Below are positions 5,922-62,326 of a stretch of 64,000 nt of DNA, in pieces. The number at the start of each line of letters is the position of its first letter. The first letter of the stretch is position 1. The notes beneath the pieces were generated by a model that was not told the DNA's origin, did not search any database, and saw nothing but the letters and a program-made list of their open reading frames with translations. This stretch comes from Dictyostelium discoideum (Eukaryota): assembly GCA_000004695.1 (NCBI GenBank), contig CM000151.3, forward strand, positions 128,001-192,000, in the 5' to 3' direction. A program made the translations under genes and the position numbers.

Positions 5922-7004
5922 TTTGTATTATCTGTATCGAAAAAGGGGTTTGAAAAAAAAAAAAAAAATTTGTGAAGTATTGTTTGATTTTTTTTTTTTT
6001 TCGAAATTTTTTTTTTTTTTTATTTTTTTTTTTTTTCACTTTTTGAAAATTTTAATACGTTTCAAGTCACCAAAAAAAAAAACATAAAGATAATTGTAAA
6101 ATTTTTTAGCAATCAAAAATAAAATTAATAAAAAAAATAAATAAAAAATAAATAAAAAATAAATGAATAGATAAAAAAATTATATAAAACAAATAATTAA
6201 TAATAATTTGTTGTTTTTATTTATTATTATTATTTTTTTTTTGTCATTTTTTTTTTATTTTTTTTTTTTTATTTTTCGGTAACGATATCCAAAAAATTTT
6301 GGAACAAGTTTTTAATTGTTTAGTCATTTTTTTATTTTTTATTTTTTTATTTTTTTTAATTTTTTATACAATTAATTATATTTTTTCAGTCATAGGAACC
6401 ACTTTTTTTTATTTTCTTTTTTTTTTTTTTTTGTTATTTTTATTATTATTATTTTTTTTTTTTAGATCTTAAAAATAAAAAAAATAAATGTATAGAATAG
6501 TATTTTTTTCATTTTTTTTTATTTTTTTTTAAAATAATTAGTTTTAAAACATTTTATTATTCAATTGGAGGAATTTGATCGAATATTCCGTCATTGCATA
6601 CTTTTAATCGGAAAAAAAAACACTTTGTGAACATACAACACACAACATAATAGCAATTTCTGAAAATTAAATTATTTTTTTTTTTATTTTTTTATTTTTT
6701 TATTTTTTTTTTATTTTTTTTTTTTTTTTTAAATTAACACCAAACCCAATTTTTTTTTAATTTTTCTTAATTTATAAAAACAGTGAAAATATTATTATTT
6801 TAAAAACCACCAAAAAAAAAATAAAAAAAAAATAAAAACATAAAAATCGGACACAAATAAATAAATAAATAAACAGATAATTAATTAATTAATTAATTAA
6901 ATAAATAATAATAATAATATAAAAAATAAAATAATTAATTAATTAATTAATTAAATAAAATAAAATAAATAAATAATTAATTAATTAAATAAAATAAAAT
7001 AATA

Positions 7005-19173: not shown

Positions 19174-20936
19174 TTAAATTTTTAAAATAAAATCTTTTAT
19201 ATTTTTATTTATCCATTTTAAAATATCATCTTCTTTAAAATTTGGATTTTCATATTGTAAAATTGTCATTGATTTCATTAAATTGGTAATATCAATAGAT
19301 TGATCTGGGAATAAATTTTTAATTTTCCTTCCATCAACTAATAAAGAAACCTTTTCAAAAGTGAAATTATCATCACTAAAAAGTTTAGTTAATTGATTTA
19401 ATACATCTAAAATTTCATTCTCTCTATCTGGATATTTCTCTAATAAATAAACTATTGAAATATTTAATGGAAAATTCCATTGTAAACCACCAGCTTTACA
19501 ATTTTTAAGTTCATGAAAAATTGAATATAAATTTGATTTATCATTTAAATTATTTAAATATAATTTAAAATCTTTTAATTGATTAATATTATTTGTATTA
19601 TTATTTGTATTATTATTTGTATCATTATTAATATTTAAAAATGATGAAATTAAATTATTAAAAAGTAATGATATATTTAAAGTTGAACCAGTATTTGTTG
19701 AAAATTGATAATTAATTAATGATTTTATAGTTTTTGAAGTATTATCTTTAAATCCTAAATGAGCATCAATAAAAAATGGTAAAAATATACAACATTTATA
19801 AAAATCAATATTAAATAAATTATCATTATTATTATTATTTTGATTAATTAATATTTTTAAATATTTTAAAGATTTTTTAAATAATTCTTTAATAATTTCA
19901 TGGTCATTTATAATTTTATCAAAATCAATAATTGAATTAATTAAACCAGTATCGATTAAATAATCAATTGATTGAATTACTGATGACTTGTTTGACATCA
20001 TTAAATGAAATTCTTTATAGATTCTTTCTTTACTAACTTTATTTGAAATTAGTTGTTTATTAAGATTGAATTTAATTGTATTATAAAGTTGTTGTTCTAT
20101 TTGAAAACCTTGAAACCTACTTGCGAATCTGATCACTCTGAATGCTCTTAACGGGTCGTCTAGTAGTGTTTTCAGTGGTTCCAATGGTGTACGAATTATA
20201 GAATTCTCAAGATCACTTAACCCATATCCTGAATGGTCTTCAATCTTTAGTGTATTTAAATTATAAAATAATGAATTTATTGTTAAATCTCTTCTTAAAC
20301 AGTCTGATAATGGTGACCAACCGTAATTTCGGGTATTCTAGAATTCGGATCACTATATTCATCACTTCTTAATGAATTGAAATCAATTTGAAATCCATGA
20401 ATATTAATTGATGCTGTCTCTAAATGTTTTGATTTCTCTGGATTTCTTTTTATTAAATATTTTTTAAAAGATTCTTTATTAATTTTAAATTCTTCTATTA
20501 ATTTTATAAAATTAGTACCTGAAATATTACTTAATGCAATATCAATATCAATATCAATATCTTTTATTTGTTGTTGTTGTTGTGGTTGTGGTTGAGGTTG
20601 AGGTTGTTGTTGTTTTTGATTATCTAATAACTATTATAAAATTAAATAAAATAAGTAAAAAATTTTAAAATATTTTTTTAAAAAAAAAAAAAGAAAACTT
20701 ACTTTATCTCTAACCCAACCACCTGCAACTCTTAATTCAATATCATTTCTATTATTGAAAATTAATATGTTTTTTAAAAAATCAAATAATTTATTTTCTT
20801 CTGGACTAATTTGTATATTTTTTGTTGGAATTGAATTATTTGAATAAAATAATTTATTTAAATAATAACTATTATTATTATTATTATTATTGTTGAAAAT
20901 CTTTGCAGTCTTTTGGAATGCTGAAAGTATTTTCAT
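19174..20936 (-). CDS. CCA-adding tRNA nucleotidyltransferase. Exons on the minus strand are 20703..20936 and 19174..20630. There is an apparent -1 frameshift near 20318.
   Basis: Exon 1 ends ...IELRVAGGWVRDK, the GG.VRD motif of nucleotidyltransferases. Exon 2 has DIDIDIDIAL, then ...SDEYSDPNSRIPEI, and after the frame break SPLSDCLRRDLTINSLFYNL (the RRD motif B) ...DDPLRAFRVIRFASRF. The intron at 20631..20702 is GTAAGT...AATAG. The frame break is discussed in findings. Confidence 0.7.
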
Positions 20937-45671: not shown

Positions 45672-46371
45672 CCAATCCATTTTTTATAAAAAAAAATTGT
45701 GGTTATTAAATGATAGTTACTTATTTTTTAAAAAAAAAATTAAAAAAAAGAAAAAAATAATAAACCATTTTTCCAAATTTTGAAAATGTGGGGGAAATCT
45801 GTGGTGATGTTTATTTTTTAATGGTGTAGGTTTTTTTTTTTTTTTTTTTTATAATCTAGACGATATCTTCTAACCATATATGTTACTCATATACAAACTC
45901 ATAAAAATTATGATAAAAAGACATAAAGTGGAATCTTAAAAATGATCATAGATTATTTTTTTTTTTTTTTTTTTATTTTAATTTATATTTTTTTGAATTT
46001 AAAAAAAAACACTTAATAAACCTTGGTGTGATTTTCACTTTTTTTTTATTTTATTTTAAAAAAAAAAGATTGGAAAAATATTAATGGGTTTCCATTGGTG
46101 ATAATTTTCTTTTCTTTTTTTTTTTTTAAAAAGATATTTTAATTATAATATTACTATTATTATTTTACATAATATCTTTGGAAATTTTTTAAAAATAATT
46201 AAAAAAAAAAAAAAACAATATCTTCATTAAAAAAAAAAAAATCCAATCCAAATATCAACAAATAAATTATTACAAGTTACTAGTTTTTTTTTTTTTTTTA
46301 ATTATTTATTTTTTATTTTTTTTTTTATTTTTTTATTTTTTTTTTTACTTGTATATATGTATGTTATTTTT

Positions 46372-46412: not shown

Positions 46413-48141
46413 TTATTTCTTTTGTTTTTTTTTCATTGGTTGAGAATCTTCTTTTGTTGATTTCTTTTCAGTTGATTTCTTATCAGTTGACTTTTTATCT
46501 GTTGATTTTTTATCTGTTGATTTTTTATCTGTTGATTTTTTATCTGTTGATTTATTATCAGTTGATTTTTTAGTTGTATCTTTTTTGTTATTATTATCAT
46601 TTGATTTTTTATCTGAATCTTTTTTATTTTTTTTTGATTTTTCATCAACATCTTGGAAAATTTCATCAACAACTTCCATATCATCTTCAACCTTTTTCTT
46701 TGGTTTACTTTTATTTTTATTATCAATTTTTGAATCTGTTGATTTATTTTTTCTATCTTGTTTTGATTGTTCAATTCTTTCAATGATTTCCTGTTTTGAT
46801 TTCTCTTTATTTGATTGTCTCTCTTTTTGTTGAGTTTCTTTCTTTTGTTGTTTTTCTAATTTCTTTTGTTTTTCAGATTCAAAGATTTCATTATTTTCCA
46901 AACCAAGTGATAAAAGAATCTTTTTGGAGGTATCTTTAATATTTTGTTTATTATTGAGTTTATAAAGACGACATAATGTTGATTCTAATAATTTACAAGA
47001 TTCTGAACCCAATTTATTTGATAAACTGGTACTATCACCACTATTTGATGATTTAATAATTTGTAAACATGAGAAAATAATTTGATTGATAATATTTAAA
47101 TGATCAAAAATTGAATTTGGTTTCAATTGTTTTTCTTTACCATTTAATGAATTACAAAGAGTAGTTAAAATATCGGAAGCATTATTTAAGAGATTCTTAC
47201 CACTTGTACCATAAGAATCTTTTCTCTTTACAATGGATGATAAAACATCTAAAATCTTCTTTGAATTATAATCATTTTGAGGTGATTCAATGATAGTTGT
47301 AACCTTTTTAATTGATGCCCAAATTACAGTTGGGAATCTTTGAGCAAACTCTGTAAAGAATCTTGATGGTACGATATTATTACGATCTAATAAACATTCA
47401 ATAATTGAATCTAATTTAGTTGAAAATAATTTAATATCTAATGAACCATATTCTGAAGGTGTTGGTTGTTCAACAACAACATTGTTGTTTGTAGTTGATT
47501 TAGTTGATTTAGTTGATTTCTTTGATGGAGTTTGTTGAACAGCAACAGTGGCAACTGGTGGTTTAATTGATAATAAAACTCTAACAATCATATAAATTGC
47601 ATGACCAGATAAAATATAAGCAGAGGAATTATTATTTTGTTGTTCTTTATCTTTTGAAGAACCAGTATGTTTTGAAGAGAGAATTGTATCGAATAAGGAT
47701 GATAATAATTGATTCAATTCTTGAACATTTACAGATTTATCAGTAGTTGTACGAATTTGTGAGAATTTATTCTTAAATAAACTAATGAAACGATTAGAGA
47801 TTGATGGTTCATCAAAGGAGGTTGCTTCAATCATTAATGGAATCATCTTAAAGATGTATTCATTTGGATTTGTAATGAATTTCTTTACATAAGATTCTAA
47901 TAAATCGATTAAACGTGATTTCAAATTAATAGTTTGAGTTTTAATATCTTGATAATTACTCTTCTTTTCTTTTTTACTCTTAAAAACTTCTTTCAAATAA
48001 TTATCCATCATTTTAGCTTCTTCTTCAGTTGGTTCAAGTAAATCTTCATCTTCATCATCTTCATCTAATAATAAATGTTTACCCATTGTTTGTTTTAATC
48101 TTGCAACTAATTCTGGATTAACTGAATTATCATCATCAGAA

Positions 48142-48176
<35 letters not shown>

Positions 48177-50123
48177 CTCTTCATCATCTTCTTCATCTTC
48201 ATCGTCTGAATTTTCTTTTGATTGTTTTAATTCTTCAGGTGAAATTGGTTTAAATTCATCATCATCTTCATTATCTTCGTCATCATCACCATTACCATCT
48301 AAACCATTAAATAATTCATCAGTTGGTGCTTTAATCATTGTAAGAATATGTTCGAGTACTTGGAAAGAGATATTATCAGCAAAGATTGAAAATATTTGTT
48401 TAATAATTGTACGTAAGATATGAATTGGTTTATCTAATAATGAGATTAAAACATCTAAAAGTACCATAAATGGTTGAGGTTTATCTTGTTCTGGTGCTGA
48501 TCTTTTTTTAGTTGTTGATTTTTGTGGTGGTTGTGGATTTGTTAATTCTTCAAAAGCAGATGTTAAATCTTCAATAATTTCAGAGATTTCTTGTGCATCA
48601 GTAAGATAATGTAATGAAACATGAACGAATAATAATTCAAAGCCAACCAATTGATTTAATCTTTTTTCAGCAGATTTTTGTTTTAATTGAATTGATTGAA
48701 CGATTTTCATAATTCTATCAATTGGTTTAATACCCATTGGTAAAAAGGTTGACAATTGTGGTCTATCTGAATCGGTTGAACCTTTTTTTAATAAATCGTA
48801 TTGGAAACTTGCCATTTTAGAAGCCCAGAATTCACCATTACTCATTGTACCTTCATATGATGTAGTTTGTTGTTTAGTTGATTCTAAAGTAAGGTATGAA
48901 AGTTCCTCTAAAACTGAACAAAATCTAATGAAACATTGATCTCTAATTGATTGAGAAATCTCTGATTTTGGTTTACTTGTGAATAATTCTTCTGTAAAAG
49001 TTTTAACTGGAGCAGCAACGACAGCAGCAGTAACTTTCTTTTTACCTTTAGTAACTGGAGTGGCGGTAGCAACGGCAGCAACTGGTTTTGATTCACATGT
49101 TAAATAATAAGAATGGAAATAAAGGAATTGTAATAATTCTAATAACATTGGCTCTAATTTAATTAAACTTTCAGTTGGACGTTTAACTAAATCTTTTGAA
49201 ATGTGACCGATTTGACTTAAAATCCAATGTCTAGATGAATCAATATATTTCTCTGATTTCTCTTCATTATTCATTTCATCAATTACCATATCATCTTCAT
49301 CTTCATTATTACTATTATTATTACTATTATCATTTGATGATGATGATGATGAAGAAACTACATTAATAAATAATTTATATAATGAATTTAAATAAATTTT
49401 AATTGAATCTTCATCTAAATCTTTAACTAATTCATTAATTACATCGACTGAAATTGATTGTTCGAATTTTTGTTTTTGTTGTTGTTGATTTTGTGGATTT
49501 TGGTTATGATGATGTGAATTATTTGAAAAGAATAAAATTAATGCTAAACGATGTTGTGATGAAATCTCTGCTGTTCTTGGAATTGATTGGAATGCTAATG
49601 AACCAACTTCATGTAATGGACTAGTTGGTTTTAATGATTCACTTAAATTTGCAATAACATTTTCACTAAAAATATCATTAATAATATCTGGATGTACTAA
49701 TGGTAATAACATTTCAAATAATTGTAATCCTAAATATCTCTTATTCATTGATGTTGTTTTAAATAAATTATCTTTTAAAAAAAAAAAAGAATTAATAAAT
49801 TTAATTATAAGAAAAAATAATAATAAATAAATAAATAAATAAAAAATTAACAAACTTACCTTCAACTATTAATTTCCAAAATTCTAATAATGTTGCATTT
49901 TCTTCATGATCAGCCAATAAAATTTCAAATGTAATTCTCCAAACTTTATGAATTCTTGGATGAGATTTACAAGATTCACTAAAAATATTTTTTAATAAAC
50001 TTAAATTTGAAATATTTAAAATACTTGGATGTTTCCAACCAACAGTTTGTTTAATTAAATTGAATTTCTAAAAAAATAAAAAAAAATAAAAAAAAGAATT
50101 AATAAATATTATTATTATTATTA

Positions 50124-50154
<31 letters not shown>

Positions 50155-51109
50155 ATAATTTTATATATATATATATATATAAACTTACTTTAAATTTTTT
50201 AGAAATTAATAATAATAATGATAATAAATCTGGTGTATATTCATCTTGAGATTGTGGAATTATTGGTTTAATGAATGGCCAAAGTTTATCAAAATTTGAA
50301 TCTGATAATTGTTCGAATAAGGAAGATAAGATTTCAAAAGATAATTCAGAATAGATTGATCTCTTTTTTGAAATGTATAATAATTGTTCAACTATACATT
50401 CAATCATATTTTCAGATGGCGGACGATTGAAATCGTAATTGATAGATTTTGAAGGTTGATTTTGAATAATTGGTAAACCTTCCAAACGAGATGATCTAAT
50501 GATTGACATCATACCGAATAAACGACCAAAATGAGATTCCTTCTCTGAAAGATTCTTTCCACTTAAATCCATATGAAAAGCAAGAAAATCGAAAAACCAT
50601 GGTAATTCAATCACTTGTTTAAAACTATGTAATATCTCTGATAATGCCATTGAAAAACCAATACGTGCTGAATCTCTTGTACTTGCTAAACCAATTACTA
50701 ATCTCTTTAATGTATAATTTAATTCTGGTGATAAATTATTATTAAAAATTTCAGATTTTTCAATAATTTTTGGAACTAAATAAAAAAATAAATAAAAAAT
50801 AAAAAAATAAATAAATTAGTATTATTATTTTTTTATTTATTTATTTATTTAAAATTATATTAATAATAATAATTTACCAATTCTTGAAATATCTTTATGA
50901 TCTTCTGGTTTAAAAACTGATTGAATTTCTTCTAATGTTTGAACTAATGTTGTAATTGATTGTAAACGAGTTTCATTATCCATTGAAGCGATATCATAGA
51001 AACATTGTAAAATGGCATCTTTTTTCTTGATCTCAATATTTAATGCATCTAATGGTGTAACAACACCATTATTATTGGTTGTTGTCACTTCTACTGTTGA
51101 GGTAGTCAT
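46413..51109 (-). CDS. DNA polymerase phi / Pol5 / MYBBP1A-family nucleolar protein of about 1460 aa. Exons on the minus strand are 50878..51109, 50189..50775, 49860..50067 and 46413..49771.
   Basis: The N-terminal exons (..LQCFYDIASMDNETRLQSITTLVQTLEE.. ; ..YTLKRLVIGLASTRDSARIGFSMALSEIL.. ; ..WKHPSILNISNLSLLKNIFSESCKSHPRIHKVWRITFEILL..) and the long acidic, HEAT-like body match the Pol5 family. Introns are GTAAAT/GTAAGT/GTAAGT with AG acceptors and consistent phases. The C-terminus carries (KKSTD)n repeats. Confidence 0.75.
46440..46560. repeat. Tandem 15-nt repeat (ttatctgttgatttt, about 6-7 copies) encoding (KKSTD)n in the Pol5 C-terminus.
   Basis: Direct reading of 46440..46560 on the plus strand. 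Confidence 0.8.
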
Positions 51110-51176
51110 CTCTTTATTTGAATTTTATTATATATAAATAGAGAGGAGTGAGATGAAAACACGCCAAATAATTTAG

Positions 51177-51216
<40 letters not shown>

Positions 51217-51518
51217 AAAAAAAAACGAAAGAAACTTTCGGTTTATTCGATAAAAAAAAAAAAAATAAAAAAAAAATAAAAAAAAAAAATAAAAATAAAA
51301 ATGAAAAAAAAAAAAATAGAAAATAAAAAAAAAAAATAAAAAACAAATAAAAATAATAAAAAATAAATGCATATGCAAAAAAAAAAGACACACCACATTT
51401 ATTTTTTTGATTTTTTTATTTCTCTATATTTTAAAATACAATTTTATTTTTATTTTTATTTTTACTATTTAATTTACAATTTATAAATTATTTGTTATTT
51501 TATTTTATTTTATTTTAT

Positions 51519-52598
51519 TTATTCATCAGATTTAATTATTAAAGTTTCACCAATTTTACTAACACAAAATTCATTTTCTTTTAATCCAAGTTTTTGAGAT
51601 TCTTTAATTAGTAATTGTGGTGGTTCTAATATTGGTTCTGATGATAATAGATAAGTACCCCAATGAATACCAAAACTCTTTTTTGAGTTTAATTCTTTAT
51701 GAATTCTAACAGCTTCTTCAACATTGATATGACAAGATCTCATAAATTCTCTATTTAAATCGTATGCACCAATTGCAATTAAACTAAAATCAAATGGACC
51801 ATAATAATGAGAGATTTGTTTAAATAGTTGATCATGATCCGCTGTATCACCACTAAAATAAAATCTTTTATTCTTTCCAACCACACACCAACTACCCCAA
51901 AGATACTTATTACGATCAAACATACCTCTTTGTGATGAATGATTTGCTGGTGTATAAATTAATTTTAAACAATTATCATCATTATCATTATTTTTGGTAG
52001 TGGTAGTAGTATTTGTGGTAGTGTGGTGATAATGATTAATTTCATCCCACCAATTTAATTCAGTTACATTTTTAATTGAAGCAGATTGAAACCATACTTT
52101 TAAACCTTTTGGTACATAGAAATGACAATTTGGGAAAAGTTTTGAAATTTCAACAACTGCATCATAATCTAAATGATCGTAATGTGCATGACTAATGATT
52201 ACGAAATCTAATGTCGGTGGTAATTCTTTGATTGAACATGCTGGATCTCTGTATCTGTGTGGTCCAAATGGTAGATTTGGAATTGGTGTACATCTTTTAC
52301 TCCAAACTGGGTCAGTGATAAATGTAAATCCTTCCATTTGAATTAAACATGTTGAATGTCCAATCCAGGTCGACCTAATTGTAGTCTCTTTATCGTATTC
52401 TGAATTTATTAAATTAAAATCTGGTTTTAAAACTGGATGAATCTCTGTTTTTTCATATTCTGTTAATGGTAATATCTTTGGTCTTTTTGTTATATAATTC
52501 CATACATCTTTTGGTGATTTCTTTTCTTCATGATTAAAAAAATCTGAAAATGGGTTAATAAATCTACCATCTTCAAATATTGATAATGTTTTCTCCAT
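51519..52598 (-). CDS. Metallo-beta-lactamase-fold hydrolase, NAPE-PLD-like. 359 aa, single exon.
   Basis: FINPFSDFF...W near the N-terminus, plus the metal-binding motif VIISHAHYDHLD and the downstream H/D ligands (..FYFSGDTADHD.., ..GIHWGTY..), are characteristic of N-acyl-phosphatidylethanolamine phospholipase D. Confidence 0.75.
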   Translation of the reverse strand: MEKTLSIFEDGRFINPFSDFFNHEEKKSPKDVWNYITKRPKILPLTEYEKTEIHPVLKPDFNLINSEYDKETTIRSTWIGHSTCLIQMEGFTFITDPVWSKRCTPIPNLPFGPHRYRDPACSIKELPPTLDFVIISHAHYDHLDYDAVVEISKLFPNCHFYVPKGLKVWFQSASIKNVTELNWWDEINHYHHTTTNTTTTTKNNDNDDNCLKLIYTPANHSSQRGMFDRNKYLWGSWCVVGKNKRFYFSGDTADHDQLFKQISHYYGPFDFSLIAIGAYDLNREFMRSCHINVEEAVRIHKELNSKKSFGIHWGTYLLSSEPILEPPQLLIKESQKLGLKENEFCVSKIGETLIIKSDE

Positions 52599-53274
52599 AA
52601 TTAATTAAATAAATAAATAAATATTATGTTAAAAATTTATTTTTGTTATTGTTATTGTTTTTAAAAAATTAAAATTAAAATTAAAATTAAAAAAAAAAAA
52701 TAAATTAAAAAAAAAAAAAAAAAAAATAAAAAATAAAAAAAAAAAAAAAAAAAAAAATTAGATTTGAGATTTGAAATGAATTGCGTGTCTTTTTATTTGT
52801 CGACATAAATTAAATTTTTCAAAAAAAAAAAAAAAAAAAAAAAAGAATTATGTCATCAAAAATAACACCCACTTGTTATTATTATTTTAAAAAAAAAAAA
52901 AAAGAGAGAAAAAAAAGAAATAATTTGTTTATATCTTCTTACATTTTTTGAATTTACAAAAGGGTGCACTATACTTTTTGAAATTTTTTTTTTTGAAAAA
53001 TTTTTTAAAAAATTTGTCAATGTTGCTATTTTTAAAAGTCGATCCATTGCCAAAGATATTTTTAATCCCCAAAAAAAAAAGTTTTTTCTGCCTTGATAGG
53101 AGGTTTTAAAAAATAAAATAAAAACAATTTTTTTTTTTTTTTTTTTCCACAAAAAAACATAAAAAAAAAAAAAAATAAAAAAAAAAAAATAAAAAAAAAA
53201 AAAAATAAAAAAATTGAGAATTATTTACCACCGATAAAAATAAAAAATAAAAAAAATAAAAATAAAAAAAAAAT

Positions 53275-53835
53275 ATGGTGGAAATTAAAATTAGAAATGT
53301 GAATGAAAATGATATAAAAGAGATTACAAATATTTATAAACATTATGTTTTAAATGAAGTTTGTACATTTGAAGAAGAGGTACCAAGTGAAGAAGAGATG
53401 AATAAAAGAAGGTCAATTATTGTTGATAAGAATTTCCCTTACATTGTTGCAACAACAACTACAACCACAACAACAATAATAAAGGATGGAGCAAATGATA
53501 TCACTAAAGAAATTGTTATCGGATATGCATATGCATCATCATTTAGACCAAGAGCAGCATACAGATTCACAGTTGAGGATAGTATTTATATTGATATTAA
53601 TTATCAAAAGTTAGGTGTTGGTTCAATATTATTAAAAGAATTAATTTCACAATGTAAAGAAAAAGGTTTTAAAGAAATTATTGCAGTCATTGCTGCTGGT
53701 GGACCAAACCAAGTTGGCGGTTCCTCAATTAAATTACATAAAAAATTTGGTTTCGATAATCAACACACTTTAAAGAATGTTGGTTACAAATTTAATCAAT
53801 TTTTAGATACTGTTTCACTTCAATTATCATTATAA
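53275..53835 (+). CDS. GNAT-family N-acetyltransferase (PAT/MnaT-like). 186 aa, single exon.
   Basis: The GNAT motifs are present: ..VEDSIYIDINYQKLGVGSILLKELISQCKEKGFKEIIAVI.. and ..KLHKKFGF..GYKFNQFLD. The length and arrangement match phosphinothricin-type acetyltransferases. Confidence 0.75.
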   Translation: MVEIKIRNVNENDIKEITNIYKHYVLNEVCTFEEEVPSEEEMNKRRSIIVDKNFPYIVATTTTTTTTIIKDGANDITKEIVIGYAYASSFRPRAAYRFTVEDSIYIDINYQKLGVGSILLKELISQCKEKGFKEIIAVIAAGGPNQVGGSSIKLHKKFGFDNQHTLKNVGYKFNQFLDTVSLQLSL

Positions 53836-54059
53836 TTTATAAAAAAATAATTAAAATAATAAAATTTTAAAAAAAAAAACTTTTTTTTTTTGTGAACAAG
53901 CACTTTGGCAAAAAAAAAAAAAAAAAAAAAAAATTTGACCCATAAACCCACACAAACACTAAAATCAAAAAAAAAAAAAAAAGATATAATTTTTATTTTT
54001 ATTTATTTATTTATTATTTTTTATTTTATTACTATTAAAAAAATGGAATTATTTTTTTA

Positions 54060-55148
54060 AAGTATGGAATGATATATATTTAAAACAATTAACATGTTGA
54101 ATTATTTAATTTATATAATGAAATTATAATTGAAAGTAGAAATGAATTATTAAATTTTATAAATAAAGAATATGTTAATTCAATTATATATTGTGGTAGA
54201 GGGAAATTATTTAAAATTGATTTCTTTGGGTATAATAATTAGAGAATATTCAATATAAATCAATTAATAATCAAGTACCAAATGGAATCAAACAATTAAT
54301 ATTACCAACTCATGATAATTTTAATTATAATTTATCATTATTACCAATTCAATTACATCAATAATAAATTTAAATTTATATCCAAATATCAATAATTATC
54401 AATAATAATAAAAATAATTTACTTTCAATTCCAAATAATATTAAGTCATTAGTTATTTTTGATAATAAAGTTTATAATAGCTATAATTATAATAATAATA
54501 ATAATAATAGTGAATTAAATTTAATAAATTTAATAAAATATAATTGTAATTTAGAATTTATTAAAGTAACTAATTCATATGGTTATTTTAGAGAATTACA
54601 AGTTAATGATTTTACAATGTTTTATAAAATTAAAAGTATTGAATATACCATATTTATTTATTGTGATACTAGTGAAAATCATTCAAATAGATTCAATAGG
54701 TTTACCAAATTCAGTTACAGATTTAAACCTCTTTTCATTAATAACTTTAAATGTATGTAAAGTATTATTAATTGATAATAAAGCACCATCTTCAATTTCA
54801 ATATCATCTGAAATCTCTAAAATTTCTAATGATTTTGGTAAACTACCATTATTATTTTTAATTCTAATTGGTTCACCAATTAACCTTACCATTTAATACT
54901 ATTTGGAAATAATGGTGATTCATCACCACCACCACCACCACCACCACCAACACCAATATAATTATATTCATAATAATCTTCTTTTATTATATAATTAATC
55001 ATATTTTTACAATCAATTGATAATTTATTAATTGATGATGGTATTGAAAATTCTTCAAACATTCCATAATAAATTTTATTATTATTATTTCTACTACTAT
55101 AAAACACTTAAAAAATCATTACCAACATCATTAAAAAGAATTATAATT

Positions 55149-55211
<63 letters not shown>

Positions 55212-55310
55212 TCAAGATCTTTTATAGTTGATAATTCAAATTTTAAAAGAATAATTAAACAATTAGAACGACTTCCAAATTCAATAAGAATAATAAATAA
55301 AAATAATTAA
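54060..55310. pseudogene. Degenerate FNIP-repeat remnants readable on both strands, interrupted by stops and frameshifts.
   Basis: The minus strand has ..IPSSINKLSIDCKNMINYII.., ..FPNSIKW*, then one frame over VRLIGEPIRIKNNNGSLPKSLEILEISDD... The plus strand has ..VPNGIKQLILPTHDNFNYNLSLLPIQL.., ..IGLPNSVTDLNLFS.. and ..LPTSLKRIII...LPNSIRII. No long frame stays open. Motifs follow the LP.S(L/I/V)..L.F pattern of FNIP repeats. An intact FNIP gene lies at 62327 onwards. Confidence 0.35.
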
Positions 55311-55397
55311 TTTTTTTTTATTTTAAACAAATAATAAAAGATAGGTGTCCCATACCCAATTTAATCAAAAATTTATAAGAAAAAATTAAAAAAATTA

Positions 55398-55439
<42 letters not shown>

Positions 55440-55659
55440 AAATTTTATTTTTTATTTTTTTTATTTTTTTTTTTATTTTTTTTAAATTAAAAAAAGGCAA
55501 CTTCACAAAATTTTTTTTTTTTTTTTTTTTTTTTAATTTTTTAATTTTTTTTTTTAATATTTTCACATTTATATATACATCAACTTCTACTTTTTTTTTA
55601 AATTTTCAAAAAAAAAAACAAAAAAGTAAACAAATAAAAAAACAAATAAACAAAAAAAT

Positions 55660-57473
55660 ATGGTAAAGGTAAATGTTAAATGGAATAAAGAGAAATATGA
55701 AGTTGATGTTGACCCATCAGAACCAGTTTCAAGTTTTAAAGGTCAATTATATTCATTAACTATGGTTCCAATAGAAAGACAAAAAAGTAATATTTAAATA
55801 TATATATATATTTTTACTGTTGATAATTTAAAGCTAATTTTTTTTTTTTTTGTGTATTAATAAAATAAAGTTATGGGATTTAAAGGTGGAATTTTAAAAG
55901 ATGATGCACAATGGAAAGATTTAGATTTAACAGAAGGAAAGAATTTAATGTTAATGGGATCAGCAGTAGAATTAGAGAAACCAGATAAACCAATTGTATT
56001 CCTTGAAGATTTACCACCAAGTAAAGCTGCAGCACTTAATAGTTTATTACCAGCTGGTTTAACTAATCTTGGTAATACTTGTTATTTAAATTCAACTTTA
56101 CAATGTTTAAAAACTGTACCTGAATTATTAACAATTATTAAAAAGTAAGTTTTTTTAAATAAATACATAAATCAATTAAAAATTATAATAATTTATTAAT
56201 ATATTTATTATTATTTATTATTATTTTTACTATTTTTTTAGTTATAAACCAAAAACAAATTCAAGATATTCAAATTTATTAAAAAGTTCACAAGGTTTAT
56301 TTAATGATTTATCAAGATTACATGAACCAGTAACACCATCAGTATTTTTGAATACATTTAGAATGTGTTTCCCAAGATTTTCAGAAAAGAGTCCAGAAGG
56401 ATTATATATGCAACAAGATGCAGAGGAGGCTTGGGGTGAATTATTAACAGCCTATGCTCACGAGTTACCATTGGATAATGCAAATGGCACTGATTCACAT
56501 TCTGCCGATTTGATAAAGAGATCAATGATTGGTAAATTGTTTGGTATTCAAGTGGTTGAGAAATTCACTTGTAAAGATAATCCAGAGGAAGAACCAACCA
56601 CTAGAGAGGAAACACTTTTAAAATTAGCATGTAATATCACCGTTGAAACAAGTTACCTTTTCGATGGTCTTAAAAAAGGTTTAGAAGAAGAGATTTCAAA
56701 AGCTTCACCAACACTTCACAAAGATGCAATCTATACAAAGAAAACTTTAATTAAACAATTACCAAAATATATTATGGTTCAATTTGTTAGATTCCATTGG
56801 AAAGATGCAACAAAAACAAAATCAAAAATTGTTAGAGTAATGTTATTTTTCATTTTTATTTTTATTTTTATTTTAATATAACAAGTTTATTAATTTTTTA
56901 TATTAATTCTAATTTTTATTACTATTATAGGTTGTACAATTCCCATTTACTTTAGATTTATTCGATTTATGTACACCAGAATATAAAGAAAGATTATCAC
57001 CAAATAGAAAGAGAGTGGAAGATGAATTTAATGCATCACTTGAAAGAAAGAGAAAAGTTATTGGTGGTAGTGGTGATGGTAATGATGAAGATGATAAACA
57101 AGTTGAAAAGAAAGCAGCAGTTAATAATGATAATCAACCACAATCTTCAACTTCTTCAAATGATTCAGTTTCTACTACAGGGGCTGCTGTTGATGATGAT
57201 GTCTTTTTCAAAGAGAATGAAACTGGTAAATATGAATTATGTGCTGTTTTAACTCATCAAGGTAGATATGCTGAATCTGGTCATTATGTTGCTTGGGTTA
57301 AGAAATCTGAAAATAAATGGTATAAATTTGATGATCGTGATGTCACAGAACATACAGATGAAGATATTAAAAAACTTTCAGGTGGTGGTGATTTCCATAT
57401 TTGTTATTTAGCACTTTATAGAACTCTTACCGTAAAACCAAAATCTTCTTCAACAATTACTGAACAAAAATAA
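55660..57473 (+). CDS. usp14: Ubiquitin carboxyl-terminal hydrolase 14 (USP14/Ubp6), with an N-terminal ubiquitin-like domain and a USP catalytic domain. Exons are 55660..55786, 55871..56144, 56242..56836 and 56931..57473.
   Basis: MVKVNVKWNKEKYEVDVDPSEPVSSFKGQLYSLTMVPIERQK|IMGFKGGILKDD...GLTNLGNTCYLNSTLQCLKTVPEL (Cys box) ...; the C-terminus has AVLTHQGRYAESGHYVAWVKK...KFDDRDV...LSGGGDFHICYLALY (His box). It is co-linear with human USP14. Introns are GTAATA/GTAAGT/GTAATG with AG acceptors and consistent phases. Confidence 0.85.
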
Positions 57474-57500
57474 AATAAAATTTTTAAAAAGTTCATATTA

Positions 57501-57562
<62 letters not shown>

Positions 57563-59490
57563 TATAATACAATACAATTTATAGTAATTTACATATGGTT
57601 TCAATTGGCTTTTATATTTATTAAATAAGTAATTTATAATATCTTGATAATCTGAATAATCTTTGTATACAATTATACCAAACCATTCAACCATATTAGA
57701 TGCTAATGGTTTGACATATCCATAGGATCCATTGATTATTATATTTTCATGTCCACCATCATCATTAGCATCCTCTTGTTCATATTGTTGTAATAAATTA
57801 TCTAATTTAATAAATGATTCTAAATCAAATGTTTTAATTATTAATTTCAATAGTTGGTGTTTTAAAAATGGTTTTTTGATTTTATTTTTCTTTCTAAATT
57901 TTAATTCAATTTCAAAATAATGTAAAAATAAATTAACTCTTGGATTATTATAATCTAACATTTTGGATACTTGGATATTAAAGTTATCTTTTACAATGTC
58001 CATGATTGTTGAATCGATAAATTGATTTAAATCTTTATTATTTCTATCAGTAAATATATATTCGAATGTATATACTGATTTATCTATATGATATTTCAAG
58101 AATGGTCTTTCTCTTTCAAAACCACCCGTGGGATCCTCAATAACGATTACACATGATCCGATGATTGGTGAAAAAGTTTTTAAATAATAGTATGAAGTGT
58201 ATTCTGAACTCTTTATTTTGATATAATTTGATATTAATTGATGAGCTGTTTTAATTTGGTCAATTGTTAAATTATTGACTCTAATTAACTTTAAATAAAA
58301 GAAATTTAATATCAATGATAAATTTGATAATGATAATTGACCATCTTTGAATCTATCAATTAAAAACTGAATAATATCAATTAAATCTTTATATAAATTT
58401 TTGCATGTATAGATTCTATTATGAAAACGATCTTTAAATGCTTTTTCATGTAATTTTAAATCTTTACCATTTAAATTATCAAGAATAAATTGTACACCTT
58501 CAAAATTTAAAAGTTCAATAAATGTTTGAAATAAATAAGAGGTTACATTTGGAAAGTTATTGAAATTTACTTTAATTTTAGTGAGATTGATTATTTGACA
58601 TGTTTGTTGAGTTGGTATTTTATATTGTTTGAATTTTTCATTTTCATGATAACCTGCCGAATCGTCCCAAATCTCCCCTTCTATAGAGTATGAGTTAATA
58701 AAAAACCGTCTTAAATTGTAATTAAATATTTTCATTACTAAAACCCCCCACCACTATAGTCCAACAATAACTCATCAATAGAATCACAAATTAATCTTAG
58801 GTATTTAATTGAATTTTTTGAACCAAATTGAATAATTTGAATCATATAATATTTAAATAAATCTTCATTATCATTAAAGTTTGATTGGTTTAAACGATTG
58901 ATTAATGATACAATATCATCATGAGTACGTAAAATGTGAATATTACACAACTGTTTATTTGAATCTAAAATTGGAATTACTCGTTTAAATTTGATTCTTG
59001 CATATTCTAATAATTCTGATGTACTAAAATCAAGTTTCATTTGATTTAATTTTGAATTTAAAGCATTTCTTATTTTTAAAATACTACAACCACCTGTTTC
59101 GATATCTGATAACCAATCGATTGTTTCTTTATCTTTAATTGTAACAATCATATCATTATCAATTAGATTTGATGTAATTTCTTTCCATTTCGATAATAGA
59201 ATTAATTGAAATTGTTTTTCATGCAAATCGATAAGTTCCTTTGTTGATATTACATCATCTAATGGTTTTTCTTCAATATCCTCTATAATGATTGATTTTT
59301 GTGTGGAATAGATTTTATAGAACATAATAATATTGTTATTATCTATTTGATAACTTTTGAATAAAGTGTTGAGATATATTTCACCAATATAGTCCAAATC
59401 TGATTTTGTTATATTGATTTTTACATGTTTTTTCAATAGAAACTTTAATATATTGGTGCTATAGGTTTTTGCCATAAAATATATTAACAA
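57416..59490 (-). CDS. Hypothetical protein encoded by two abutting ORFs (58738..59490 and 57416..58735). These are probably one gene interrupted at a G6 run. Both ends are uncertain.
   Basis: The reading frame is open upstream of the M at 59490, so more 5' exons exist; candidate ATG-containing mini-exons sit near 59957. The 3' end runs into a read-through of a 67-nt poly(A) tract as poly-Phe. No family recognised. Confidence 0.45.
57490..57556. repeat. Homopolymer of about 67 A residues between the convergent 3' ends of usp14 and the 57416..59490 gene.
   Basis: Direct reading. Confidence 0.9.
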
Positions 59491-60684
59491 TGGTTTAATT
59501 TTTTCACAGAGTCGAATGGTATCAATTAGTTCATTATATTCTTTTAAATACCATGCATATAAAACAATAGATTTAGTTTCATTAATTAATAGTTGAAATA
59601 AATTAAATTCTGAACCATAATCAGAAATGAATTGTGAACTATTTAATATACTTGAAAAATAATTTTCATGAAAAAATGCTTTACTAAAAAACCTGAAAAC
59701 AATATACCATCAATATTAATAAATTTAGATAAACCAATTGAATCAGACCTTTTCTTTTTATTTTAAAATTTAAAAATGATCCAGGCTTATTTTTTTATCT
59801 GGAAAAATGCTATTGAATTCCGAAAATGCAATACTAAAATCTATACTGGGGTCACTGCTTAAAAAACTTGTTTAAAATTTGAATAATAAATATGAAATCC
59901 ATTTAAATATCCAGAGTGTTCAACTAATATATTTAAATATGTATCATAATTTGTCATTTCAAATCAACAATTATTAAATTTTTTTTTTTAATGGTGTGGA
60001 GTATGTGGATGAATAAAGATAAAATCCAAATCTTTTTGTTGAATTTGAAAATATACATTTATAAAATTCTATTTTTGTTTCCCCAATTTCCTTATTTTCT
60101 GTGCCAAGTAATGTTTTATCAAAGTTTATAAAGTTAATATTTGTTGCTTTTAAATATGTTTATATAAAAGTTTGAAAAATGAGAAATCTTCCAAATCACA
60201 TCCATCAAAGAATACTTTTTTAGAATAATTGGAATATGTTGTAATTGTTAAGTTTTAATATTGTAAAATTTTATTGGAAACACATTCAGGTTGGTTGGAA
60301 ATATAGTTGTAATATAATCTATGGGAATTTTATCTGATTAATTAAATAGAAAAAATGGGAAAATATCTTTCATTTCACTAACAATATCTTTTTAAAAAAA
60401 AAAAAAAATTGGATAAAATTTTAAAAAAAATAGATTTCCATTTGGATAATTAAAAAAAAAATATTGGATAAAGATAATCAAAAAAGACACTTTTTATCCT
60501 ATAGTGGATAAAGGTAAAACACTAATTTTTTAAAAAAAAAAAAAATTGTTTCTATCCAACTGCCCCTCCCCCCTTTTTTTAAATTTTTTTTTTACTAAAA
60601 ACAAAATAATCCATATTAAAATAAACTAATTTTATTTTTTTTTGTTTTTTTTACTATAAAGTAAAGGATATTTTATTTTTAATA

Positions 60685-60894
60685 TCAACAGTAATTTGCA
60701 AATAGTGAAACAAACATCGAATTAAAACTTTCTGGCATTTCTTTCCAATCTCTTTTTGCATTCATGAATGCATTGTTAACAGCAGAACAATCTTGGCTAC
60801 TAATTTTGCAAACCCCACCATTGGCTTCATTAATTTCACCCAACACAAAAGAAAGAGTAATAATAAGTAAAATAAAAATAATAATTTTATTCAT
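60685..60894 (-). CDS. Candidate small secreted protein of 69 aa.
   Basis: It has a signal peptide (MNKIIIFILLIITLSFVLG) followed by a 50-aa mature region with 4 Cys. Isolated ORF, no homologue recognised. Confidence 0.35.
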   Translation of the reverse strand: MNKIIIFILLIITLSFVLGEINEANGGVCKISSQDCSAVNNAFMNAKRDWKEMPESFNSMFVSLFANYC

Positions 60895-61219
60895 TTCTTT
60901 ATTTTTAATTTTAGTTTTTTTTTTTTTTTAAAAAAAATATTTTTTTTTTTTTCTTTTTTTGAATGATTTTTAAAAATAAAATTATTTATTTAACCTTTTT
61001 ATAACTTTTTTTTTTTTTTTACCAATATTATTAAAAAAAAAATAATTACCATAACAAATAATTACTATTTTAAATTTCCATTTAAAATATTATAAAATAT
61101 TAATATAAATTTGTATTTGCCATCTTTTAAAATAAAACTATGTTATTACATGAAATTGTTTTTTTTTATTTTTTTTATTTTCTTTATAGTCATCAAATAT
61201 AGTTAAATACAAATTTAAA

Positions 61220-61251
<32 letters not shown>

Positions 61252-62326
61252 CATATGAACCTTTTTGTTTTTTTTTATTATAATAATTATTTGTGATATG
61301 GTAATTTTTGGAATTAAAAAAATTAAAAAAAAAATAACAAAAAATTAATAAAATTTAAAATAGATTAATCATGAATAGATAAATAAATAAACAAAAAAAA
61401 TGTTTTAAAAAGAAGAAATTTAGTGAATATCGTTTTCTAAGACTTTTTTTATACCAAAGATTTTAAATCCACCATCTTCATATTTTTCAATACCATTTTT
61501 GCAGTATTTAAAAAACATTAATATTTACTTATTTTATTTTATCTTTTTTATTTATATATAAAATATCGTAAATTAATTATTTATATTTTTATTTCATTTT
61601 ATTTTATTTTCTTTTTTATTTTAATTTTATTTTTTATTTTTTTTTTTAAATTTAATTTCCCTGTGAAATTTTAAAAATTACAACGAAATAATGAAAAAAT
61701 TAAAAATAATAATCTCCCCAGATCAGAAAAATCTATTAACAATTATTGTGAGATTTTCAAAAAAATATTAATGAAAAAAATTACTTGGTGGTAATTAATC
61801 ATAATTTCTATATTGAGATAGAGATTTTTTTTTTTTTTTTTTTTTTTTTCAAAATTACCCTATCATCCATTGTTTTTTTTTTTTTTTTAAAATAAAGTAT
61901 TTAAAATCCCACAATAAACAAAAATTTTTTTTTTTTTTTTTTCATTTTAAATATGATTTTGTTGTGAAATTTTTTTTTTTTTTTTTTTGTATTATTATAA
62001 AATTAATCAAATCAAAAAAAAAAAAATATGTCCATCTTGAATTTCTCTTTTTATTTTTACATATTAAAATTTTTTTTTCAAGAGTTAAATAATTTTTTAA
62101 GATACCAAAATTGGGGTTTAAAAGGGATTTTTTTTTTATTTTTTATTTGACCCATTACTTTTATTTTTTTTTATTTTAAATTTAATAATCATTGTCATTC
62201 TAATAAAATTAAAAAAAAATATTAAAAAAAAAATTAAAAAAAAAAATTTAAAAAACCAATCATTTTTTTTTTTTTTATCATTTTTCTCATTTTTTTTTCA
62301 ATATCATTTTAATAATAAAAAAACAG

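Follow-up and report, generated by a model that had tools for sequence, protein, structure and literature searches.

A probable one-base consensus error, masked by an un-intron-like intron, in a partial gene duplicate of the Dictyostelium discoideum AX4 reference

Introduction

Errors in the AX4 genome of Dictyostelium discoideum that are compensated in the gene models by artificial introns have been described for several genes, clcD and DDB_G0279477 among them, and the gene models of dictyBase contain 119 introns of under 5 bp (Singh et al., 2017; PMC5282741). Two further systems invite comparison with the locus presented here. One is the family of DDB_G0271218 and DDB_G0276409, of which numerous fragmentary members are found in the databases. 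The other is programmed −1 frameshifting, together with homopolymer phase variation.

The locus, DDB_G0271262, lies on the minus strand of a stretch of 64,000 nucleotides of the AX4 chromosome 2 reference (GCA_000004695.1, contig CM000151.3, positions 128,001 to 192,000), which is called the window in the following and to which all positions refer unless a chromosome is named. Like the errors reported by Singh et al., it appears to combine a one-base consensus error with an intron of un-intron-like character that restores the frame. Unlike their tiny introns, those found here are 62 nt long, have GT-AG ends and delete 21 amino acids of real coding sequence per gene. The resemblance to the partial duplicates of the DDB_G0271218 / DDB_G0276409 family lies in a segment that is 96% identical to the C-terminal two-thirds of a paralogue; in contrast to gene fragments, the copy in a sister strain still has more than 670 codons in one unbroken ORF, to which a signal-peptide exon is added by automatic gene models. 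With programmed −1 frameshifting and phase variation the locus shares two overlapping frames beside a short G homopolymer, but it has no slippery heptamer, no downstream structure, no variation of the tract and no conservation of the break, and what differs between the strains is the adjacent T. The coordinates of the features are collected in Table 1.

Table 1. Features on the minus strand of the window that bear on the two frame breaks
Feature	Positions	Strand	Description	Remarks
Upstream open frame	58738..59709	−	323 codons stop-to-stop; ends ...DSIDELLLDYSGGGF	TAG at 58740..58738
Downstream open frame	57416..58753	−	445 codons stop-to-stop	frame −1 relative to upstream
Missing-base site	58750..58751	−	single T in the window (A at 58750, + strand)	DNA alignments, pairwise and four-way
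G6 run (C6 on + strand)	58744..58749	−	6 in other assembly too	not the site of the change
Pseudo-intron, DDB_G0271262	58710..58771	−	62 nt; GTTATT...TTTAAG, 29% GC	protein ...DSIDE joined to RFFINSY...
Duplicated segment	57577..59601	−	DNA 96.3% identical to codons ~349–1025 of full-length paralogue	blastn, tblastn
Poly-T tract (gene strand)	57503..57557	−	55 nt	read as poly-Phe after family homology ends
Signal-peptide-like exon 1	60718..60894	−	MNKIIIFILLIITLSFVLG...	joined to fragment by both automatic gene models
CCA-adding tRNA nucleotidyltransferase, DDB_G0271378	20,936..19,174	−	1,763 nt	
Second pseudo-intron, DDB_G0271378	20304–20365	−	62 nt; GT...AG, 39% GC	frame-changing

Two abutting open frames and the base between them

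An earlier, sequence-only reading had described two abutting ORFs at this place, one at 58738..59490 (−) that ends in ...DYSGGGF before its stop and one at 57416..58735 (−) that begins with MKIFNYN, and these coordinates proved exact. Taken from stop to stop, the two frames (59709..58738 and 58753..57416) overlap by 16 nt on the minus strand, which at the junction reads ...GAC TAT AGT GGT GGG GGG TTT TAG TA ATG AAA..., and any single base added between the Gly codon GG_ and the stop brings them into one frame. In a scan of open frames across the 64 kb, this junction was the only abutting pair in which both partners had at least 120 codons. The GC content of the window is 21%, so that stop-free stretches of such length are not due to chance, and in a protein search both halves match the same homologues with E = 0.

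The identity of the missing base is indicated by GCA_054883475.1 (ACTFIT), an independent assembly that is 99.7–99.8% identical to the window, and 99.8% at this locus. At the junction this assembly has GGTTGGGGGG, whereas the window has GGT-GGGGGG, with six G's in both; over a wider part of the DNA alignment, AGTGGTTGGGGGGTTTTAG stands against AGTGG-TGGGGGGTTTTAG, and the form with a single T, as in the window, is GGTGGGGGG. Within the ORF, which is uninterrupted in GCA_054883475.1, the two assemblies differ by the missing T and otherwise only in how long the 3′ poly-T tract is. The encoded protein, ACTFIT_002057, reads ...DYSGWGVLVMK... across the junction, and its peptide pieces overlap at 58750 when they are mapped onto the window. 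The claim of a single gene split by one missing base is therefore borne out by a 99.8%-identical independent assembly with the extra base and an intact ORF. The repair suggested at the time, one more G in the G6 run, was right in that a single added base fuses the frames and wrong in the base, which is a T, the G6 run being unchanged: an extra G would restore the frame as ...GGGVLVMK..., but the sister assembly reads ...SGWGVLVMK....

A four-way DNA alignment places TT before the G run also in the paralogue of two strains, which makes the T ancestral. Trp-Gly is the commonest reading of the family at the junction, where the family alignment commonly has the motif GWG(V/x)L(V/x), and a spurious insertion that happened to recreate this conserved Trp codon seems implausible. 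The tract does not vary in length: the window, the AX2-like orthologue and the paralogue of the latter all have the run as G6.

By its near-identity to the window and by the strain list in PMC12745789, GCA_054883475.1 is probably the assembly of AX2-214. Its locus tags are from the series used for the genomes presented by Holland et al. (2025; PMC12745789), which include those of the lab strain AX2-214 and of the wild isolates CR116C and OT3A, described as “genetically diverged from AX4”, and Illumina as well as Nanopore reads stand behind these assemblies. At another locus, AX2 and AX4 were found to be 99.5% identical, without coding changes (PMC12745789). The ACTFIR and ACTFIW proteins, for their part, differ from those of AX4 at many positions.

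A partial duplicate of an orphan family

Judged by its alignments, DDB_G0271262 is a partial duplicate of DDB_G0271218, of which it holds the C-terminal two-thirds (codons ~349–1025). When the DDB_G0271218 protein (1026 aa) was searched against the window with tblastn, residues 341–634 matched 59625..58744 in one frame and residues 633–1022 matched 58750..57587 in the other, and the N-terminal 340 residues had no match anywhere in the window. The flanks of 57577..59601 are unrelated to the full-length paralogue by blastn, from which it follows that the copy has neither the start nor the stop of the family; the full-length architecture, ~1000–1100 aa with a conserved N-terminal region of ~340 aa, is absent from it. 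In the AX2-like annotation the parent paralogue is 13 locus tags off (ACTFIT_002057 vs ACTFIT_002070). In the other assembly, the poly-T tract that follows the end of the family homology measures 30 nt less. Past this tract, the downstream frame (57416–57600) overlaps the 3′ end of a convergent ubiquitin hydrolase (UCH) gene on the + strand (ORF 57015–57473), which adds to the evidence for a fragment without a proper 3′ end.

A search with the fusion protein returned matches confined to Dictyostelium discoideum and “D. cf. discoideum”, most of them single proteins of ~1000–1100 aa that cover both halves, and at least 30 members match across both halves with E = 0 and 56–93% identity. The proposed check of whether homologues are single proteins thus came out in favour of one gene, as the full-length members (~1000–1100 aa) span the junction unbroken. 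When 1.84 billion cluster representatives were searched exhaustively with a profile, only 21 hits were obtained, of which those identified were members known from the search with the fusion protein, and many others were short fragments. Neither of the two halves nor any of three full-length members gave a significant match to Pfam, a search of the family profile against PDB sequences revealed no relative, and a search of the literature for DDB_G0271262 and the gene IDs of the family brought up no report on the family. An AlphaFold model computed for one full-length member is mostly helical and of low confidence (pLDDT 58, pTM 0.37). In this low-confidence model the junction falls into a coil with pLDDT <50 (residues 611–682 of DDB_G0271218), which agrees with a variable linker between two conserved alignment blocks.

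The pairwise dN/dS between the DDB_G0271262 copy and its paralogue is ~0.77. With ACTFIR as the outgroup, and at small counts, 5 synonymous and 9 non-synonymous changes fall on the branch to the fragment and 7 and 30, respectively, on the branch to the parent. The ratio of 30 non-synonymous to 7 synonymous changes on the parent branch is approximately neutral, and the change there exceeds that on the fragment branch. The orphan family as a whole may be evolving very fast, or may be little constrained. ACTFIR_012026, which was considered as the orthologue of the fragment in a diverged isolate, turned out by synteny to be the orthologue of the parent DDB_G0271218. The ACTFIR parent gene shows an apparent internal deletion and a split gene model.

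A second break in a CCA-adding enzyme gene

The sequence-only reading had counted three single-base frame breaks in the 64 kb, of which a second one was recovered at ~20316; a third turned up neither in the scan for abutting ORFs nor in the comparison with the other assembly over 9125–64000. The second break lies in DDB_G0271378, the gene of a CCA-adding tRNA nucleotidyltransferase, to which 1,763 nt at chr2:147,174–148,936 are assigned in AX4 (Erber et al., 2020; PMC7432833). It is developmentally expressed, and attempts to knock it out in AX2 failed (PMC7432833).

The window copy of DDB_G0271378 falls short of that in the other assembly by one base. At 20316–20322 the window has ACGGTTGGT-CACC and the AX2-like assembly ACAATTGGTACACC, with differences at 20322, 20321 and 20316 that amount, within 7 bp, to two substitutions and one missing base. 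In three other strains the reading ...SRIPEITIGTPLSDCLRRD... is continuous, and a full protein of 555–563 aa is encoded. The AX4 model, with 542 aa, can be rebuilt from the window only if a 62-nt frame-changing intron is removed, and 21 residues, SDEYSDPNSRIPEITIGTPLSD, are lost from it. These residues have the DIDIDIA stretch on one side and the RRDLTIN motif on the other and include the conserved segment ...EYSDPNSRIPEI..G.P.... Once the missing base is restored at 20316 the skipped stretch measures 63 nt, which means that the pseudo-intron works on the defective sequence only. The recurrence of a like pattern in the same window, here with three differences within 7 bp, strengthens the earlier judgement that a consensus error is likelier than biology.

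The enzyme was expressed as a synthetic gene from the annotated chromosome 2 coordinates, and the text is silent on 542 versus 563 aa (PMC7432833). The names cca1 and cca2 are swapped between sections of the same paper.

Differences between the two assemblies across the window

The comparison with GCA_054883475.1 covered 54,876 nt of the window (9125–64000), in which 25 substitution columns and 40 indel events were found. Inside the two genes that were examined in detail, the only substitutions are the two at the CCA break. Most of the indels (37 of 40) lie in or beside homopolymer runs of at least 9, nearly all of them poly-A/T, and in 35 of these 37 the run of the window is the longer one, by up to 30 nt (57528–57557). 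Shortened homopolymer runs are frequent in long-read assemblies. The three remaining indels are all single bases absent from the window, at 20316, 45996 and 58751, and two of them break ORFs.

The omission at 45996 (AAATT-CAAAA) is intergenic and lies outside any long homopolymer. Close to it, a cluster of mismatches at 45765–45773 has G in the window and T in the other assembly, as in TTTGGAAAAATGG vs TTTGTAAAATTGT, and 44792, 40044 and 40053 are further positions of difference. All of these have the look of base-calling noise in intergenic sequence rich in AT. Four substitutions are found within ~320 bp of AT-rich intergenic DNA at 61900–62222, and none in the neighbouring 10 kb (47525–57527). 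Scans for tRNA genes and Rfam families detected none in the window.

AX2 and AX4 have NC4 as their common ancestor. For D. discoideum, a mutation rate of 2.9e-11 per site per generation has been reported (Saxer et al., 2012; PMC3466296). From this ancestry and this rate it follows that real differences within 55 kb should be very rare, and most of the observed ones technical. In the same study, 1916 of 1917 candidate substitutions relative to the reference were common to all AX4-derived lines (PMC3466296), which points to reference errors or differences between clones.

Explanations of the frame break

The break is most likely not a biological feature of the organism, and a one-base consensus error in the AX4 chromosome 2 reference is its probable cause. 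The missing base would belong at about chr2:186,750, and the T would be absent from the reference consensus only and present in AX4 cells. The real DNA would then read ...AGT GGT TGG GGG GTT TTA GTA ATG..., as one continuous ORF (...DYSGWGVLVMKIF...), and the AX4 annotation would have masked the omission by an invented 62-nt frame-changing intron. A consensus error is favoured by the independent near-identical assembly and the paralogues, which carry the T next to an unchanged G6 run, by the other technical-looking discrepancies nearby (20316–20322, 45765–45773 and all three non-homopolymer indels) and by the fact that both AX4 models need 62-nt introns, of 29% and 39% GC as against 6.9% in a genuine one. 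With two corrections, namely a T instead of a G as the missing base and a fragment instead of a full-length gene, the interpretation of the sequence-only reading is supported.

The alternative that deserves most attention, although it is unlikely, is a real one-base deletion in AX4 or in the AX3/AX4 lineage, that is, a frameshift in a dispensable partial duplicate and thus a pseudogene polymorphism. The first ~340 codons and the stop of the family are absent from the copy, which runs into a 55-nt poly-T tract, so that nothing would select against a frameshift, which would cost nothing here, unlike in the CCA gene; its dN/dS relative to the paralogue, ~0.77, also fits. A real deletion sits poorly, however, with the common NC4 ancestry of AX2 and AX4 and the extremely low mutation rate, with the technical look of the other non-homopolymer discrepancies, including the three within 7 bp in the CCA gene, and with the 5 synonymous and 9 non-synonymous changes on the fragment branch, which do not indicate strong decay. 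The converse error, in which the window is right and the extra T is a Nanopore or polishing artefact of the other assembly, is very improbable. That assembly does have indel problems of its own, its run being the shorter one in 35 of the 37 homopolymer events, but the site is TT versus T with no long homopolymer, the T brings back both a frame of over 670 codons and the Trp codon of most paralogues, TT is also present in two paralogue sequences from two strains, and Illumina and Nanopore reads were both used for the assemblies.

Equally improbable is a frame that needs no repair, with the AX4 model correct and 58771..58710 really spliced. The segment has GT and AG at its ends, and the AX4 DDB_G0271262 protein is rebuilt exactly when it is removed, from pieces of the window that are 100% identical, though only with a change of frame at the junction. 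Against splicing, a genuine intron in the same window is 72 nt long, has 6.9% GC and begins with GTAAGT, the 5′ splice-site consensus, whereas 58771..58710 begins with GTTATT, has 29% GC and contains the G6 run. The AX2-like model and every full-length paralogue keep the skipped stretch as part of their protein, and hence neither an intron-like composition nor absence from the coding sequence of homologues was found for it. With the T restored the segment measures 63 nt and causes no change of frame, so that the intron works on the T-less sequence only, as if fitted to the error, and the same device at the CCA break deletes 21 residues; the 62-nt intron of the DDB_G0271262 model is therefore implausible. 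Recoding, by −1 ribosomal frameshifting or transcriptional slippage on GGU GGG GGG UUU UAG, or the presence of two independent genes, comes last in probability and is close to negligible. The geometry does require a −1 shift, and tRNA-Gly could, from the sequence, re-pair within the G run. Yet the zero frame (GGT GGG GGG TTT TAG) offers no X XXY YYZ heptamer, the 111 nt downstream are without structure (MFE −11.9 kcal/mol, z = +0.59 vs shuffles), the length of the G run is constant between the assemblies, the break occurs in no homologue, and the sister strain encodes the fused protein; two independent genes are at odds with the ATG of the downstream ORF, which is an internal Met of the family. 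It is likewise very doubtful that the T-less sequence is genuine and the split locus still expressed, as two polypeptides or as a fusion made by low-level −1 tRNA-Gly slippage, in which case a young chimeric gene of a signal-peptide exon and the C-terminal two-thirds of the family would be on or off between lab strains.

Gene models and curation

If the break is a consensus error, as appears probable, its biological significance is small and its value is a practical one, for curation. In AX4, the two models of DDB_G0271262 and, more important, DDB_G0271378 need to be corrected. Pseudo-introns of 62 nt would escape screens for artificial introns under 5 bp, and the remaining masked errors would come to light genome-wide if the new AX2-214 assembly were compared with the AX4 reference.

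The signal-peptide-like exon 1 of DDB_G0271262 is separated from the fragment by a gap of ~1 kb, in which the longest ORF has at most 46 aa, and its joining to the family fragment is dubious. An intron of ~1 kb after exon 1 would be unusually long for Dictyostelium. The segment that contains exon 1 (60571–61102) is repeated, with ~90% identity, a few kb past the end of the window (positions 5973–6510 of the locus extracted from the other assembly).
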